DNA from: Muribaculaceae bacterium
GTDB lineage: Bacteria > Bacteroidota > Bacteroidia > Bacteroidales > Muribaculaceae
DNA: 64,000 nucleotides
NCBI GenBank assembly: GCA_029062005.1
Contig: JAIDQZ010000041.1
Span: 946 to 64,945 of the forward strand
Direction of reading: 5' to 3'
In this document: piece after piece, positions 42,085 through 48,289 of the stretch
Layout: every line of letters begins with the position of its first letter
Numbering within the stretch: position 1 is the first letter of the stretch
Notes under the pieces: model-generated
Told to the model about the DNA's origin: nothing
What the model saw: the letters and a program-made list of their open reading frames with translations, nothing else
Databases searched by the model: none
Translations under genes and position numbers: made by a program

Positions 42085-42648
42085 GTGGCACATCTCGAAA
42101 AATTCATCCCGTTTCTGATCTTCTGGGAAACCGGCATCAAAGACACGACGCTCGGCAATAAGCATCTGTTTGGCAAAGCTAAAGCAAAAGGCATAGCCAA
42201 TGATCCATATGACATGGGAGGGGCAACTATGGCAGGTGTGACTATAGGCACTTACCGCACATATTGTATCCGTAAAAATCGCCCTGTCCCATCTGTAAGA
42301 TCTTTGTCAAGACTGTCATATGAGGAATGGCTTGATATCCTCAAGACAATGTTCTGGGATCGTTGGCAGGCAGACAGGATACTGGATCAGAAAGTGGCGG
42401 AGATGCTTGTGGACTGGGTATGGACCAGCGGCAGCTACGGGATCACCATTCCGCAACGGCTCATAGGAGTAAAAGCAGACGGCATTGTGGGTCCGAAAAC
42501 CCTCGATGCCGTCAACAGATCTGATCCCGATGAATTATTCCGGCTTATAAAACAGGAGAGGATCGCCTACATAGACCGCATCTGCACCTCCCGTCCCGCC
42601 AACCTCCGCTTCCGCTCCGGCTGGCTTCGCCGCCTCCACGCCCTTTGA
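42085..42648 (+). CDS. GH108 N-acetylmuramidase with C-terminal peptidoglycan-binding domain (endolysin-like)
   Basis: WE...NDPYDMGGATMAGVT, VKADGIVGPKTL, NLRFRSGWLRR. Confidence 0.88.
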   Translation: MAHLEKFIPFLIFWETGIKDTTLGNKHLFGKAKAKGIANDPYDMGGATMAGVTIGTYRTYCIRKNRPVPSVRSLSRLSYEEWLDILKTMFWDRWQADRILDQKVAEMLVDWVWTSGSYGITIPQRLIGVKADGIVGPKTLDAVNRSDPDELFRLIKQERIAYIDRICTSRPANLRFRSGWLRRLHAL

Positions 42649-42713
42649 AAGATAATTTATTTAAGTTGAGCTTATGAGATGGGGAATTCCGAATTCGAAA
42701 AAAGAGTATTTTT

Positions 42714-42745
42714 TTTGCATAAATAGATAAATATGTCTATCTTTG
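42714..42745 (+). promoter_or_regulatory. Bacteroidetes housekeeping promoter
   Basis: TTTG (42714-42717), 20-nt spacer, TATCTTTG (42738-42745); matches the TTTG-N19-21-TAnnTTTG consensus. Confidence 0.75.
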
Positions 42746-42747
42746 CA

Positions 42748-42852
42748 ATGGAAGTTGTTTAAGCTTATTTCCGATTGGCTCCCTATTAAGCCAAAGCAGG
42801 TCTGCACGAAAATATGACGAAATCTTAATAAAATAGGTCGAAACAACTTCAT
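42748..42852 (+). ncRNA. Candidate structured RNA or leader starting at the promoter
   Basis: GAAGTTGTTT/AAACAACTTC 10-bp closing stem with inner stems (see findings). Confidence 0.45.
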
Positions 42853-42995
42853 ATGGTATTCATTATATAGACCTTGAAGGATGCGAGCTGCGAGCTGACG
42901 ACCGCCTTCATTTCAATGGTAACGGGTGTCGTGAGGCAGCCAATCGCTTCTTCCAATGCCTACAAGATCTGGATCTCCTTCCCGTTGAAAAGTAG
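42852..42995 (+). pseudogene. 3' fragment of an SGNH/GDSL-like hydrolase gene
   Basis: YGIHYIDLEGCELRADDRLHFNGNGCREAANRFFQCL...*: a DxxH block-V-like motif with no start codon. Confidence 0.4.
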
Positions 42996-43135
42996 GTGTA
43001 AAAAACTCGCTCCAATGCGTAATATGTAAAGATGTATAAAAGAAGAAATATAAGGTGATTAATGTAGGTTGGGAGATCAGAAAAGGAGTATTCTAATAAT
43101 AATGTAACTGTTCTCCGGTAAAAGACAAGAAAGAT

Positions 43136-43666
43136 ATGAAAGATTTTGCGGCAATAGATTTCGAGACAGCCAACGGCAGCCGTTCTTCGGTATGCAGTGT
43201 CGGTATCGTCATCGTGCGTGACGGGGAAATAGCAGACAGATTCTATAGCCTTATACGTCCTACTCCCAACTATTACAGCCCTTTCACCACCCGTATTCAC
43301 GGGCTAACGCGTCGCGACACCGATACGGCTCCGAAATTCCCAGATGTATGGTCTCAGGTCCGGGACCGGATAGCAGGTCTTCCTCTTGTGGCCCATAACC
43401 GTCCGTTTGATGAAAGTTGTCTCAAGGCGGTTTTTGCTGAGTATGGGATGGATTATCCCGGCTATGAATTCCACTGCACCCTCGCAGCCTCAAGACGTAC
43501 GCTCAAGCTGCCATGTCATCAGCTACATGTAGTGGCGGCAGCCTGCGGGTATGCTCTCGACCACCACCATCACGCTCTGGCAGATGCAGAGGCATGCAGT
43601 TTTGTGTGTATTGATATACAGAGGAGATTTGGTTGGGAAGTGTTTGAAAATCAAAATCATAAATAA
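43136..43666 (+). CDS. DEDDh 3'-5' exonuclease (DnaQ-like); C-terminus supplied by the inserted element
   Basis: AIDFETAN, AHNRPFD, HHALADAEAC; the native tail is displaced to 44403-44444. Confidence 0.92.
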   Translation: MKDFAAIDFETANGSRSSVCSVGIVIVRDGEIADRFYSLIRPTPNYYSPFTTRIHGLTRRDTDTAPKFPDVWSQVRDRIAGLPLVAHNRPFDESCLKAVFAEYGMDYPGYEFHCTLAASRRTLKLPCHQLHVVAAACGYALDHHHHALADAEACSFVCIDIQRRFGWEVFENQNHK

Positions 43667-44694: not shown

Positions 44695-45792
44695 TCAATT
44701 TAGCCATTTTTTGTTTTTGGTATCGTATATTTTTGCTCCAGCAGTAAACGATCCTTTGGCATTGCTTACAACGATTCCAGCTTTTACATATCCACTATTG
44801 TCTATTTTGGTAGAATAGTTAAACGATGCGGAAGTTGCTGTGGCATTCAATTTTGTATCTTGCCATTCTTCAGCATAAGGATTCCAAACTCGTAATACAA
44901 TCTCTGTTGCTTTGCCATATCCATTGCCAGTGGAATTTTTCCAATTTAGAGTCATAGTGCTTCCGCTGACTGTACAATTACCGTAAGTATATGCTGGAGC
45001 AAATGCTTCATCATTGCTTGTTGCTGTGTATTTTGCATAATCGCTAAAGGGGCTCTCTCCTGCGCTATTAACTGCTTTCACTTTATAATAGGCAGTTGCT
45101 CCATTTGTTGGCGCATTTGAATCTGAATAACCATATTGCGCGTAAGATGTTTCACCAATTTTTGAATAGCTGCCGTTTGCGGAAGAACTTTTGTAAATAT
45201 AATATGTTGTTGCATTGTTGACTGAGTTCCAACGCACTCTAACATCAGGAATATAATTATTCCCTTCATTTGATACCGTTACGCCAGTAGGTGCTTGAGG
45301 TTTTTGTTGATTATTGTCTCCGCCTTGGTTGTCGTTGCCACTACCGCCAGGATTATCATTGCCACCACCTGAATTGCTGCCAATGTATTGAACGTAAATT
45401 GGTGATGATTTAGAACTTATCGAGTAAGTATTTCCTCTAAGGTTGTTACAGGCATAAATATAATAATAATTATCTCCTTCCAGGGGTTTAGTGTCTATTA
45501 CATTTGTATTATAGATTTTCCCGGAATCACCAATATACCCTAATGATACAGTAGTCCCATTTTTAGAATTTGACCGAGAAATTGTATAGAACTCTGCAAC
45601 ATCTACTGGATTCCAAGATAGCCTTACTCCATTGGTAACAACTGTCCCGGATACACCGGTCGGTGCTGTTAAGGAACTGGTGATGGGTGGGTTGTAATCC
45701 GGCTCGTCATCATCGTCTCCTCCGCAGGAAACGAAAGTAACGCTAAATGTCGCGACGAGCATCACTTTCAGATACTTTAGTAATTTTCCCAT
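44695..45792 (-). CDS. Surface lipoprotein with fibronectin type III repeats
   Basis: Lipobox FVSC-GGDDDDE (acidic export signal); APTGV...W..V..A..Y.IY.S FN3 units; AT-rich. Confidence 0.85.
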   Translation of the reverse strand: MGKLLKYLKVMLVATFSVTFVSCGGDDDDEPDYNPPITSSLTAPTGVSGTVVTNGVRLSWNPVDVAEFYTISRSNSKNGTTVSLGYIGDSGKIYNTNVIDTKPLEGDNYYYIYACNNLRGNTYSISSKSSPIYVQYIGSNSGGGNDNPGGSGNDNQGGDNNQQKPQAPTGVTVSNEGNNYIPDVRVRWNSVNNATTYYIYKSSSANGSYSKIGETSYAQYGYSDSNAPTNGATAYYKVKAVNSAGESPFSDYAKYTATSNDEAFAPAYTYGNCTVSGSTMTLNWKNSTGNGYGKATEIVLRVWNPYAEEWQDTKLNATATSASFNYSTKIDNSGYVKAGIVVSNAKGSFTAGAKIYDTKNKKWLN

Positions 45793-45850
45793 TTGTTTTG
45801 TTTGGTGTCGCCTCCATTCCTGATTTGACTTTTAAGTTGTTATACGAAAA

Positions 45851-46086
45851 AAGCGTGGAATGATATCTTGTCTATCTTCAAGGAGGCATCGCCAAACGCC
45901 TATCAGAGAAATAAACAGTCCACTCCCACGCCTTATCGGATATCGATACCCCTTGTCGGGGAGTGGATATACGACAAGCATGAGCGTTTTATTGACTGCT
46001 CATCCTTCTCTGATTTTGAAATTGGCGATTTCCTTGAAAGGATAAAGCAAAAAACGCTTCTATATGTCCGCAGAGTTATCTCTGCG
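45851..46086 (-). ncRNA. Candidate highly structured 5' leader RNA of the FN3 lipoprotein gene
   Basis: At least seven nested stems (see findings); a TAACTTTG -7 box sits on the minus strand at 46090-46097. Confidence 0.55.
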
Positions 46087-46197
46087 TTGCAAAGTTACGA
46101 AAAATTCATGAATTAGAAGCCATGAATCTCAGTTTTTTTTGATTTCATTCTATCATTGGCTGATCGCAATACTCACATTTTGGTCAATGCCGATAAA

Positions 46198-46218
46198 AAA
46201 ACCGCTATTAAGCGGTAT
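46198..46218 (-). terminator. Terminator of the TlpA-like genes
   Basis: ACCGCT-TAAT-AGCGGT followed by a T-run on the minus strand. Confidence 0.55.
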
Positions 46219-46330
46219 ATTCCCTACTACTGGAGAAAACCTACACAACATCGTCACCAATTATAGGGAAAAGGGATGTCGCAACGAGATAGCCTTGTGG
46301 CTGTCAAGTTTCTAAATATTGAGCACGTTC

Positions 46331-48289
46331 TTATTTAAGCCATCTGTCCAGTTCTTCCGTCAGGGAATGGATATGGTTTGAGGTGCAAAGGATATCACCG
46401 TTACTGCCTATGATGATGTAAGATGGATATGAGTGAAAATTGAAACGCTGCATAAGTCTCTGATGCTGGTCGAGAGGCAGACGGTAATGGTCGCCGGTGA
46501 AGCTCTTGATGCGTTCATTCCATAAAGCCTCCGGACTGGTCTCGTCGGCAAGGTAAACGAAAGCGACATTATCGGTGTAATCTCCTTTTACCTGTTCATG
46601 CTCCGCCATTGCTACCAGACAACCTCCACACCAGGTGTTCCATATATCAATGAATATCATTTTCCCCTTGTGTTTCTCCACCAGGTTAAGGATTATCTTG
46701 TCGGCGTCATCGTCGAGCGACATCTGGCTTACATTCGACACGGCTTTGCCAAGTATCTCCCTCTGCACATTGTTCTGCTCAGTTAGAAATGCCACTGCCA
46801 CCGGAGAAAAATCCTTGATCTCTTCATTCAATACTTCATCAGGCAACAAATCTCCTCTTAGCAACATAGCGGAATACGAACTGATGATCATATTCTGTCT
46901 GATGTCTTCATCATCGATGCCGGTGATATCGCTGAAACGTTGAATGTTTTCCGCCATATCATGACGCTTGAAGATCATTTGCAAGTCATTATTGTACTTT
47001 TCATAAAGAGAATCCAAGGCATCGCTGTTGGCCTCAAAGAATGCCGATTGCCTGCGACTGAAATCATCATTGGTCATCTCTTTATGGTAGCTTGATAATG
47101 ATATGCCATGATTATTCTCCATCTCACTGATGAACTTCAGATAAGCGTTGTAAATCTTTCTTGCATCCCTGATATTATCATCGGCAAGCATCGCCCGCAG
47201 GTTTCCGGCCTTTACCTTGTCTGCGCCGTCAAGCTGCAGGGAATCGCACAGGAATGCGACGCGGACTGACAAGCGCTTCCTGCCATCTTTCAGCACGTCG
47301 GCAGGCAGTCTGTCGATGTTGAACCCGAGCATACCCTCCACAAGTTTTGTCTCGTCTGCATCGAGTTTGCCGGTTGCCAGCAAATCTTCAAGTATATATG
47401 CCTCTATCTGTGCCGTCTCCGGACCTGAATCATCCGACAGATAAAGGCGACTGCAATAGGATACGGCAGAATCATAATTTCCTGCCCACCTTAGCCTGTG
47501 ACTATCTAAACCCAGCGCCGGAATAAAGGAATAGTAAGCGGAATCAGGCTTTACAAGCTGATAATACGGCGCCATCAATTGAGCCTGCGCTGCATCACAA
47601 TCAATATTTAGTCTCAGAAGCTGTTTCATCCTGTCGGTATATGGCAGCGTATCGACATGGGCATACTGTGAGGCACGGTGCTCCATCACTGCATGTACAA
47701 ACTCGGTGTTGTCGGCATATTTCTTATAGTAGGCTCCGTTTTTACCGAATGAGTTCCATATCACGTCATGGCCCGTATTTGTGGCAAGCATGTTGTTGAT
47801 GTCGCTGTCAGCGCCGCCGGCAAAGATCACGGTGCCGTCGTTACCCTGATGTCCGTTTGCCAATCGACCGGCATAATCGACGGTGATATTCACGTTTTCG
47901 CCTGGTGAGAGATACATGAGTCCGTAATAACCCGGTATGTCTATGAAGCAAGGCTGATGTGTCTGATAAAGTTTGACGTGCAAGTTGTAATTACCTGACG
48001 AATCAACCGGGGCAGTCCCATGCTTTTGATCAATATATCGTCCGAAAGAACTGCGGGGATAGATCTTGGCATTCGGATTGTCATCTTTTGCCCGATCATA
48101 GTTGATGGTGGTTCCAGTGATCGTGGCATATCCTTCCTCCCATAGCGGTGTAGGCAGCAAGTCTTTTCCGAGGCTATTCTCTTTTGTGGCAGTCACCGGT
48201 TTAGGCTCCGTCGGTTTTGTCTGCCGCCCGGAGATCGACATGCTTCCGCAGATGCAGATTGCCATGAGAAAAAGAAGTTCTCTTTTCAT
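46331..48289 (-). CDS. Exported protein with C-terminal TlpA/thioredoxin-like domain (CGGC)
   Basis: FIDIWNTWCGGC, SYPSYIIIGSNG. Confidence 0.8.
   Translation of the reverse strand: MKRELLFLMAICICGSMSISGRQTKPTEPKPVTATKENSLGKDLLPTPLWEEGYATITGTTINYDRAKDDNPNAKIYPRSSFGRYIDQKHGTAPVDSSGNYNLHVKLYQTHQPCFIDIPGYYGLMYLSPGENVNITVDYAGRLANGHQGNDGTVIFAGGADSDINNMLATNTGHDVIWNSFGKNGAYYKKYADNTEFVHAVMEHRASQYAHVDTLPYTDRMKQLLRLNIDCDAAQAQLMAPYYQLVKPDSAYYSFIPALGLDSHRLRWAGNYDSAVSYCSRLYLSDDSGPETAQIEAYILEDLLATGKLDADETKLVEGMLGFNIDRLPADVLKDGRKRLSVRVAFLCDSLQLDGADKVKAGNLRAMLADDNIRDARKIYNAYLKFISEMENNHGISLSSYHKEMTNDDFSRRQSAFFEANSDALDSLYEKYNNDLQMIFKRHDMAENIQRFSDITGIDDEDIRQNMIISSYSAMLLRGDLLPDEVLNEEIKDFSPVAVAFLTEQNNVQREILGKAVSNVSQMSLDDDADKIILNLVEKHKGKMIFIDIWNTWCGGCLVAMAEHEQVKGDYTDNVAFVYLADETSPEALWNERIKSFTGDHYRLPLDQHQRLMQRFNFHSYPSYIIIGSNGDILCTSNHIHSLTEELDRWLK

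Follow-up and report, generated by a model that had tools for sequence, protein, structure and literature searches.

A large, previously uncatalogued family of folded RNAs, read as a new class of cis-acting 5' leader in Bacteroidales and their temperate phages

We have analysed a 64,000-nucleotide stretch of DNA (the window) from a Muribaculaceae bacterium (contig JAIDQZ010000041.1, positions 946 to 64,945) and, within it, an element on the minus strand of the intergenic region 45793-46330, which separates two minus-strand genes. The element is one copy of a large, previously uncatalogued folded RNA family, and the rod that it forms is almost certainly a genuine, strand-specific and conserved RNA structure in leader position that Rfam 15 lacks. 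Conservation covers two large groups of helices that are not all compatible with one simple nested fold. As modelled here, helices P1-P6 join the 5' half to the 3' half in fold R, a long rod capped by an apex; fold T is modelled as two domains, one formed by a hairpin (Q) that displays CGCC and the other by a hairpin (G3) that displays GGCG, a helix T2 and a GC-rich helix (T) which closes the domain next to a U-tract. Our best reading of the sequences places the element at the core of a self-contained cassette of promoter and leader; it would represent a new class of large cis-acting 5'-leader RNA in Bacteroidales and their temperate phages. Judged by gene neighbourhood, members of the family stand before hundreds of genes for predicted surface or secreted proteins, in gut Bacteroidales and in their phages, and they probably control the expression of the genes behind them. 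The original prediction, made from the letters of the window, underestimated how far the module extends (promoter to start codon), how large the family is and how much of the molecule the proposed switch involves (all of it and not only the apex).

A search of the whole window with the 4227 covariance models of Rfam 15 at the gathering threshold returned a tRNA elsewhere as its sole match. A permissive search (E up to 10) of 45600-46500 gave only chance snoRNA-like matches far below threshold, and 20 homologous loci from other families gave no Rfam match at the element; the earlier statement that it could not be assigned to a known family therefore holds for the window copy and for these loci. 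We found no published description of the element in the searchable literature (Muribaculaceae/Bacteroidales RNA motifs, the conserved 12-13-mers and FopS).

By BLAST the element is single-copy in the 3.06-Mb assembly that holds the window, and copies 72-88% identical occur in 13 of 37 genomes of genus relatives, sometimes two or three per genome. Alignment of the genus copies displays an invariant core between stems that differ yet remain complementary. A conserved-motif scan of one genome per species yielded at least 120 loci. Nearly all of the 120 listed are from Muribaculaceae metagenome-assembled genomes or isolates, including Duncaniella muris, Lepagella muris, Paramuribaculum and Sangeribacter, and a few bear Prevotella, Alistipes or Barnesiella labels. 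A covariance model, R1, built from 98 of the scan sequences found the element in 204 of 301 Muribaculaceae genomes and 30 of 35 genera, leaving about a third of the genomes of the family without it; across the order, with strict filters and at most five candidates scored per genome, it was found in at least 111 of 401 genomes and at least 71 of 227 genera. The 28 genomes that were fully scored hold from one to 16 copies each. The window copy scores 230 bits against R1, and its own genome gives seven further matches: two lie at about 65 bits and four at 27-31 bits, and the seventh is the main copy read on its reverse strand. Apart from the main copy, that genome thus has only divergent paralogues (27-66 bits). 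Divergent relatives retain a AAUCGCCAA ... AGGYGUUUGGCGAURCC core with a shortened or different apex; the form typical outside Muribaculaceae is 160-200 nt long. In IMG/VR, 85 viral contigs carry the element. At the nucleotide level, plasmids gave no match and the GenBank phage set gave only one, in an unannotated record.

Read as RNA, the minus strand folds at -101.6 kcal/mol compared with -68.6 +/- 5.2 kcal/mol for dinucleotide shuffles (z = -6.4, with none of 100 shuffles as good); the plus-strand fold has z = -3.7. A repeat search recovered the main helix arms as perfect inverted repeats. The rod is made up as follows.

45847..46060, minus strand: core element modelled by R1, 214 nt
46054-60 with 45850-56, minus strand: helix P1 (R1 model)
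46041-46 with 45871-76, minus strand: helix P2 (R1 model)
46031-38 with 45877-84, minus strand: helix P3 (R1 model)
46022-29 with 45888-95, minus strand: helix P4 (R1 model)
46006-14 with 45902-10, minus strand: helix P5 (R1 model)
45994-46001 with 45913-20, minus strand: helix P6 (R1 model)

RNAalifold applied to the raw MAFFT alignment gave a poor consensus in which the variable stems were misaligned. Covariation was measured by anchor-based partner-swap tests and by covariance-model alignment. The partner-swap test, which is alignment-free, compares the duplex energy of a sequence's own two arms with that of arms exchanged between sequences. Own arms gave -9.7 kcal/mol for P3 and -10.2 kcal/mol for P5, against -3.2 and -4.0 kcal/mol for swapped arms; the corresponding values in the broad set are -8.6 against -1.5 for P3, -9.4 against -2.0 for P5 and -7.4 against -4.8 for P6. 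In the model-based alignment of 78 distinct sequences from many families, 54 of the 61 rod pairs have changes on both sides and 89.7% of cells are paired, compared with 73.8% for shuffled partners and about 40% for slid partners; double changes occupy 706 cells as opposed to 228 +/- 13 in shuffles. P4 is invariant within Muribaculaceae. In distant families UCGCCAA/UUGGCGA is replaced by CCGCCAA/UUGGCGG, CUGCCAA/UUGGCAG or UCGCUAA/UUAGCGA, and since P4 covaries there it is a true helix and not only a sequence motif.

The original prediction had described the rod as nested pairs, given here in plus-strand letters, and they are present. AAGCGT (45851-56) with ACGCTT (46054-59), TATCTTCAAGGA (45873-84) with TCCTTGAAAGGATA (46031-44), ATCGCCAA (45888-95) with TTGGCGAT (46022-29) and ATCAGAGAA (45902-10) with TTCTCTGAT (46006-14) are all kept across homologues, and the main rod helices undergo compensatory changes.

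Among paired cells G-U occurs 420 times and A-C 109 times, and one-sided changes opposite fixed arms are almost all wobble-compatible transitions. These two observations identify the folding strand as the mRNA-sense strand, which counts against a role as duplex DNA or as single-stranded DNA of the template strand. They bear directly on the idea that the element works at the DNA level, as a repeat resembling a miniature inverted-repeat transposable element (MITE), an invertible segment, a cruciform, a single-stranded DNA promoter or a recombination site. The long imperfect palindrome would suit such an element, as would the patchy distribution with copies in phages and accessory regions and the assembly break inside the element in one relative. 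Nevertheless, we regard a DNA-level role as very improbable. The MITE or DNA-hairpin alternative kept by the original prediction is contradicted by the single BLAST copy, by stems that are compensated separately in each copy and by the strand-specific G-U excess. In addition, the local hairpins G3 and Q and a non-palindromic helix, K (described below), covary, the promoter lies outside the repeats, and plasmids and phages gave the sparse nucleotide-level matches noted above.

The apex that caps the rod contains several alternative helices.

45925..45987, minus strand: apex region
45972-78 with 45952-58, minus strand: alpha, CUUGUCG/CGACAAG
45944-48 with 45934-38, minus strand: delta hairpin
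within 45925..45987, minus strand: epsilon/H1, ACGCUCAUG with GGCGUGGG
45959-67 with 45919-27, minus strand: gamma, UCCACUCCC/GGGAGUGGA, pseudoknot-capable

In the long form of the element alpha and delta (UAUCG/CGAUA) change on both sides. Epsilon (ACGCU/GGCGU) and gamma are 97-98% paired, and these two helices and P6 vary almost only through wobble-compatible transitions. Gamma crosses alpha in an H-type pseudoknot topology. An alternative, extended-rod apex is the minimum free energy (MFE) structure and is 93% paired too, because CUUGUCG covaries both with CGACAAG and with its near-duplicate CGAUAAG. Short forms replace the apex by a simple hairpin, H1 (GCUCACG/CGUGGGC). A switchable top had been proposed from the alternative pairing of CTTGTCG (45952-58) with CGACAAG (45972-78); this pairing is present with compensatory changes, and covariation supports it strongly. 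The two apical hairpins of the same proposal differ in how they are kept: TCCACTCCC (45919-27) with GGGAGTGGA (45959-67) is retained only through one-sided, wobble-compatible changes, and ATGAGC (45980-85) with GCTCAT (45998-46003), although present in the window, is specific to this copy, others retaining only AGC/GCU.

The second conserved fold uses the following parts.

46000..46045, minus strand: Q, alternative hairpin of the 5' half, UUAUCCUUU (46037-45) with GAAGGAUGA (46000-08)
45885..45900, minus strand: G3, local hairpin GGC-GUUUGGCGAU-GCC with the 3' strand of P4 as its loop
45847..45858 including the U-tract, minus strand: 3' strand of helix T, CCACGCU, with its partner GGCGUGG at 45926-32
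45847-52, minus strand: U-tract, UUUUUU, following the 3' strand of T

Q encloses an inner hairpin, GAAAU-CGCCA-AUUUC, which displays CGCC. Its arms (UAUCCUU/AAGGAUA; UAUUCUUG/CAGGAAUA in short forms) gave -7.1 kcal/mol with their own partners and -4.6 kcal/mol with swapped ones, and many compensatory changes are visible in alignments. In G3, GGC/GCC alternates with GGU/ACC, with 11 double changes in alignment A1 and with U-A 37 times and C-G 35 times in the broad alignment. T2 (GUUUAUU/GAUAAAC) is 92-98% paired and T (GGCGUGG/CCACGCU, directly before the U-tract) 96.8-97.9%; as a group G3, T2 and T are 92-98% paired, with double changes, and the variants of the T 3' strand (CUGCGC, CUACGC and CCGCGC) are all wobble-compatible. 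When the 5' half is folded in isolation its MFE structure is a hairpin enclosing UCGCCAA in 94 of 107 sequences, usually with CGCC in a small loop; the isolated 3' half forms T as the closing helix together with G3 in 94 of 95. The energies of the two half-folds sum to a mean of -67.5 kcal/mol, compared with -79.8 kcal/mol for the full rod, and since the two-domain fold thus lies only about 12 kcal/mol above the rod it is a plausible metastable, co-transcriptional state. The covariation of Q, G3, T2 and T, a set mutually exclusive with the rod, and its dominance in folds of the half-molecules suggest a two-state leader.

We tentatively favour the view that the leader is a kinetic, co-transcriptional, whole-molecule attenuator or switch. 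This fits best since there are two conserved competing folds, a GC-rich helix abuts the U-tract in one of them, and complementary loops could nucleate the rod. The 5' domain (Q) would fold first. Its CGCC loop would then kiss the complementary GGCG loop of G3 and zip into the rod, which would sequester GGCGUGG in the apex and block the terminator-like helix T, so that RNA polymerase reads through. Should a protein, a ligand or slow refolding, for instance, keep the 5' domain in place, the transcript would be ended by T and the U-tract before the gene. In the read-through mRNA the tail of the element would pair with the G-rich loop of the last hairpin (helix K), fixing the structure that borders an A-rich ribosome landing site. 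A broader proposal, which we hold more loosely and consider possible rather than probable, is that of an order-wide class of whole-molecule refolding leaders, with RNA polymerase, Rho, an RNA-binding protein or another core cellular factor as a possible binding partner, that would co-ordinately gate accessory surface and secreted proteins of the dominant gut phylum and would have been adopted by temperate phages for lysogenic-conversion lipoproteins.

Several points weigh against a switch of this kind. Either helix T (7 bp, GC-rich) or P1 adjoins the U-tract, and each closes a large domain; P1 does so in fold R, so that both folds look terminator-like. The domain closed by T is 67 nt, which is unusual for a terminator, and a consensus terminator scan reports no compact intrinsic terminator there. 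One compact, non-switching fold might also accommodate the rod together with G3 and the core of Q, these two making loop-linker or loop-loop tertiary contacts or pseudoknots. The downstream genes share no common pathway, which counts against a classical metabolite riboswitch. Finally, the covariance-model alignment was fitted to the rod and hence leans towards the rod structure; the alignment-free swap tests are free of this bias.

The element is set between a promoter box and a start codon, and the locus in the window is laid out as follows.

46331-48289, minus strand: upstream gene, thioredoxin-like protein
46090..46097, minus strand: -7 promoter box, TAACTTTG, of the Bacteroidetes type TAnnTTTG (read from sequence)
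46069..46086, minus strand: P0, 5'-terminal hairpin CGCAGAG-AUAA-CUCUGCG (sequence and fold)
46062..46068, minus strand: GACAUAU, conserved single-stranded motif between P0 and the rod
45815..45862, minus strand: helix K, tail CAUUCC (45857-62) with GGAAUG (45815-20) (covariation)
44695..45792, minus strand: downstream gene, 365-aa lipoprotein with signal ...FVSCGGDDDDEP and no confident Pfam domain

The order of the parts is constant across loci: TAnnTTTG, P0, GACAUAU, the rod (160-215 nt across the family), ACGC and a U-rich tract, a small hairpin with a G-rich loop (GGGRAYG), an A-rich stretch and ATG. The -7 box lies just upstream of the CGCAGAG hairpin in the window, and TAnnTTTG lies about 25-45 nt upstream of GACATAT in most of 70 loci listed. 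The CGCAGAG hairpin (46069-86) noted in the original prediction is present; its position is kept and its sequence varies, a hairpin of differing sequence occupying the P0 position in other loci. GACAUAU is kept in most loci listed and in other families, and pairing of this motif with the stretch after the U-tract gave no signal (-2.1 kcal/mol for true and -2.5 kcal/mol for swapped partners). The 9 nt after ACGC contain a mean of 6.9 U, the start codon follows about 45-65 nt past the U-tract, and a median of 58 nt separates ACGC from ATG.

Helix K generally joins the six nucleotides directly 5' of ACGC to the downstream G-rich loop; in the window GGAAUG lies in the G-rich loop of the hairpin between the U-tract and the start codon. 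CATTCC tails are accompanied by a downstream GGAATG in 32 of 32 loci, compared with 3 of 81 other loci, and CGTTCC tails by GGAACG in 20 of 29, compared with 1 of 84. The pairing is present also in divergent paralogues of the window's own genome. K therefore ties the element to the pre-start hairpin, and the conserved unit spans promoter to start codon. From sequence we infer, by position and orientation, that the downstream mRNA carries the element as its 5' part, between the element's promoter box and the start codon. A same-strand open reading frame (ORF) of at least 60 codons starts within about 110 nt in 106 of the 120 loci listed (about 88%), and together with the covariation this bears out the earlier claim of a structured minus-strand leader or noncoding RNA.

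The same data bear on a stand-alone small RNA (sRNA), a transcript of about 250 nt that would normally end at the U-tract and act as a trans regulator, a protein sponge or another ribonucleoprotein, with the gene expressed by leakage only. It would explain the promoter and the U-tract after the closing helix, and the element is multicopy, as are known Bacteroides sRNA families (PMC11697453). We nevertheless find it quite improbable given the ORF at a fixed short distance and the covarying K, which joins the element to sequence past the U-tract and so makes read-through RNA part of the functional unit. Moreover, TAnnTTTG occurs in the spacer of only four of the 120 loci listed, a rarity which indicates that the downstream gene depends on the promoter of the leader.

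It is also unlikely, though less so, that the element is a constitutive processing or stability module, in which an imperfect duplex of about 100 bp, as a substrate of RNase III or another nuclease or as a protective 5' structure, would set mRNA half-life and insulate translation from promoter context with no regulated switching. The long rod with regularly spaced internal loops, the 5'-terminal P0 hairpin, the modular placement before unrelated genes and the way in which K locks a G-rich segment away from the A-rich start region are all compatible with such a module. It would not need loops that are near-invariant across the order, a pseudoknot-capable apex or a conserved competing fold.

The genes behind the leaders have export, not metabolism, as their common trait. 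Among the 107 downstream proteins 62 different Pfam families occur, none dominant, the commonest being C-terminal sorting domains of the type IX secretion system (T9SS), BspA-type leucine-rich repeats, PEGA and DUF5036. A hydrophobic signal-like N-terminus is found in 72 of 87 downstream proteins (83%), 33 of which have a lipobox-like motif, and sizes range from 80 aa to T9SS cargo of 1800-1900 aa; in two complete genomes the short form precedes a T9SS cargo protein of about 1800 aa. The exceptions include a small family resembling helix-turn-helix (HTH) proteins (16 loci), DUF1643 and a hexapeptide transferase. In the viral contigs 80 of 82 downstream ORFs are small lipoproteins, secreted or membrane proteins, a layout that by analogy is that of phage morons. 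The window's own downstream gene had been described as a surface FN3 lipoprotein; the lipoprotein signal is clear (...VSCGGDDDDEP), but FN3 is not confirmed by Pfam. Pfam and NCBIfam name neither this lipoprotein nor the recurrent small HTH-like protein.

Such a set of genes invites comparison with processive antitermination of the Put or EAR kind, or with an anti-Rho insulator, in which a promoter-proximal RNA would act in cis on polymerase or deny Rho a loading site. Horizontally acquired surface genes and phage morons would thereby escape premature termination, and the alternative helices would be folding intermediates. The element invariably follows its own promoter directly, has a near-invariant sequence core across many families, as expected for a universal partner like RNA polymerase, precedes unrelated genes over the full range of sizes given above, and is common in viral contigs before small lipoprotein genes. 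Enrichment at accessory surface genes parallels RfaH/ops, UpxY and EAR. The element has no likeness in sequence or structure to put or EAR, however, and no Rfam match; many targets are single short genes with little need for processivity; and the conserved U-tract and the covariation of competing helices are left unexplained. We therefore consider antitermination or insulation rather unlikely and retain the kinetic switch as our preferred, if tentative, reading.

Several named categories fit the element poorly, and a single-stranded DNA promoter, 6S RNA and leader-peptide attenuation were rejected. A metabolite riboswitch implies association with the genes of one pathway, and the 62 Pfam families found among 107 downstream proteins count against it. 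An invertible promoter is at odds with a -7 box that lies outside and upstream of all inverted repeats. For a single-stranded DNA promoter (Frpo-like), the folding strand is the mRNA-sense one and promoter boxes were not seen in the stem; on reading the sequences no TAnnTTTG was noticed within the rod, the motif having been counted only in the spacer. Against 6S RNA stand the copy number of up to 16 per genome, the absence from about a third of the family's genomes, the leader position and the lack of an RF00013 match. Attenuation by a leader peptide does not fit conservation that is compensatory rather than codon-like, in stems that differ in every copy. As regards membership of FopS/GibS, the architecture described for those RNAs (PMC11697453) differs and there is no Rfam match.

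We made further observations around individual loci. After the upstream thioredoxin-like gene of the window, a terminator-like hairpin on the minus strand at 46201-46216, ACCGCUUAAUAGCGGU followed by UUUUUUU, separates the transcript of that gene from the leader promoter. Many P0 hairpins in loci L030-L092 share an AAGAG-type loop (for example GGAAGAGUCC and GGCAAGAGUGCC), and the P0 of the window is of a different class with a GCAGAG/CUCUGC stem and an AUAA loop. Two contigs of one relative (L003, the end of G008:C57, and L015, the end of G008:C6) end inside the element with an overlap of about 75 nt, and the long inverted repeat probably broke the assembly there. The window copy lies about 3 kb from the gene of a GH108 lysozyme that has a PG_binding_3 domain. 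This gene and one for an RNase T-like exonuclease, at 42085-43666 of the window, are downstream of the lipoprotein gene by about 2-3 kb, and the region may be a prophage edge.

The small HTH-looking family (about 80-90 aa) has the motif MIHIGxLIKxxF...LxCxRxNIYNIFxRxxID, and examples are L052:804-1067, L038:6249-6947 and L135:2828-3070, with 13 other loci. Its gene is the most frequent one directly behind the leader (16 of about 115 Muribaculaceae loci listed), and the protein might be a self-regulated partner of the RNA. Several recurrent downstream families in the viral contigs L200-L284, among them MKKLLLCALLPSVLLCGCSSDDEP... and MQIEELLALLTLAAAFLQIILFF..., resemble lysogenic-conversion genes or morons. 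The paralogous proteins of about 1800 aa with a T9SS C-terminal domain, L172:6576-11978 and L173:6562-11952 (genomes G401 and G519), each have a 162-nt short form about 400 nt upstream, and the flanks of these short-form copies are conserved between copies.

Bacteroidales dominate the mammalian gut, where surface lipoproteins and T9SS cargo shape colonisation, phage resistance and host interaction. To our knowledge, post-transcriptional control in the phylum, which is without Shine-Dalgarno-dependent initiation, Hfq and ProQ, is poorly mapped. Given at least 71 genera, up to 16 copies per genome, carriage by phages and a surface and secreted gene context, few uncatalogued classes of regulatory RNA in the gut microbiome would be more abundant. 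Covariation supplies a ready structural model and the two conserved folds a testable switching hypothesis. The cassette of promoter, leader and start region may also serve as an expression part for Bacteroides and Muribaculaceae engineering.

Among known systems, the ERIC and Correia repeats are likewise multicopy rod-forming elements co-transcribed with their neighbours, but the present element has one BLAST-detectable copy in the window's genome, copy-specific compensated stems and a fixed orientation and distance to the start codon; neither terminal repeats nor target-site duplications were noticed, although no search was aimed at them. The FopS/GibS sRNAs of Bacteroides are a multicopy Bacteroidales family tied to expression of outer-membrane and surface proteins and have TAnnTTTG promoters (PMC11697453). 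According to the same paper, a FopS RNA is a short molecule made of a single-stranded 5' seed (there called R1) and a terminator hairpin, and these RNAs target susC mRNAs in trans and were deposited in Rfam (PMC11697453); the present element, in contrast, is a 160-215-nt rod in cis that matches no Rfam model. HK022 put, the Bacillus EAR and the UpxY-dependent capsule leaders of Bacteroides are also promoter-proximal, cis-acting structured RNAs before surface or phage genes. Our element has no detectable similarity to them, is much larger, precedes mostly single genes and has a U-tract and competing folds.

The mRNAs of the hok family (fbi/tac) and the antisense kissing systems CopA/CopT and RNAI/RNAII resemble the element in having conserved, metastable local hairpins that form during transcription, more stable long-range pairing of 5' and 3' parts, and complementary loops, here CGCC and GGCG, that could nucleate pairing. 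They differ in that the pairing of our element is all intramolecular and that it lies before ordinary secreted-protein genes, with no toxin ORF, antisense gene or 3' processing signal. Attenuating leaders such as riboswitches and the T-box of Firmicutes are alike in being long, multi-helix 5' leaders with many copies per genome, in having invariant junctions and loops between freely covarying stems, and in having mutually exclusive helices that end at a U-tract before an ORF. The present element departs from them in lacking an Rfam match, T-box or specifier features and a metabolic theme downstream. It would refold over its whole 160-215 nt and not only in a short expression platform, and it brings its own promoter and a linked pre-start hairpin.

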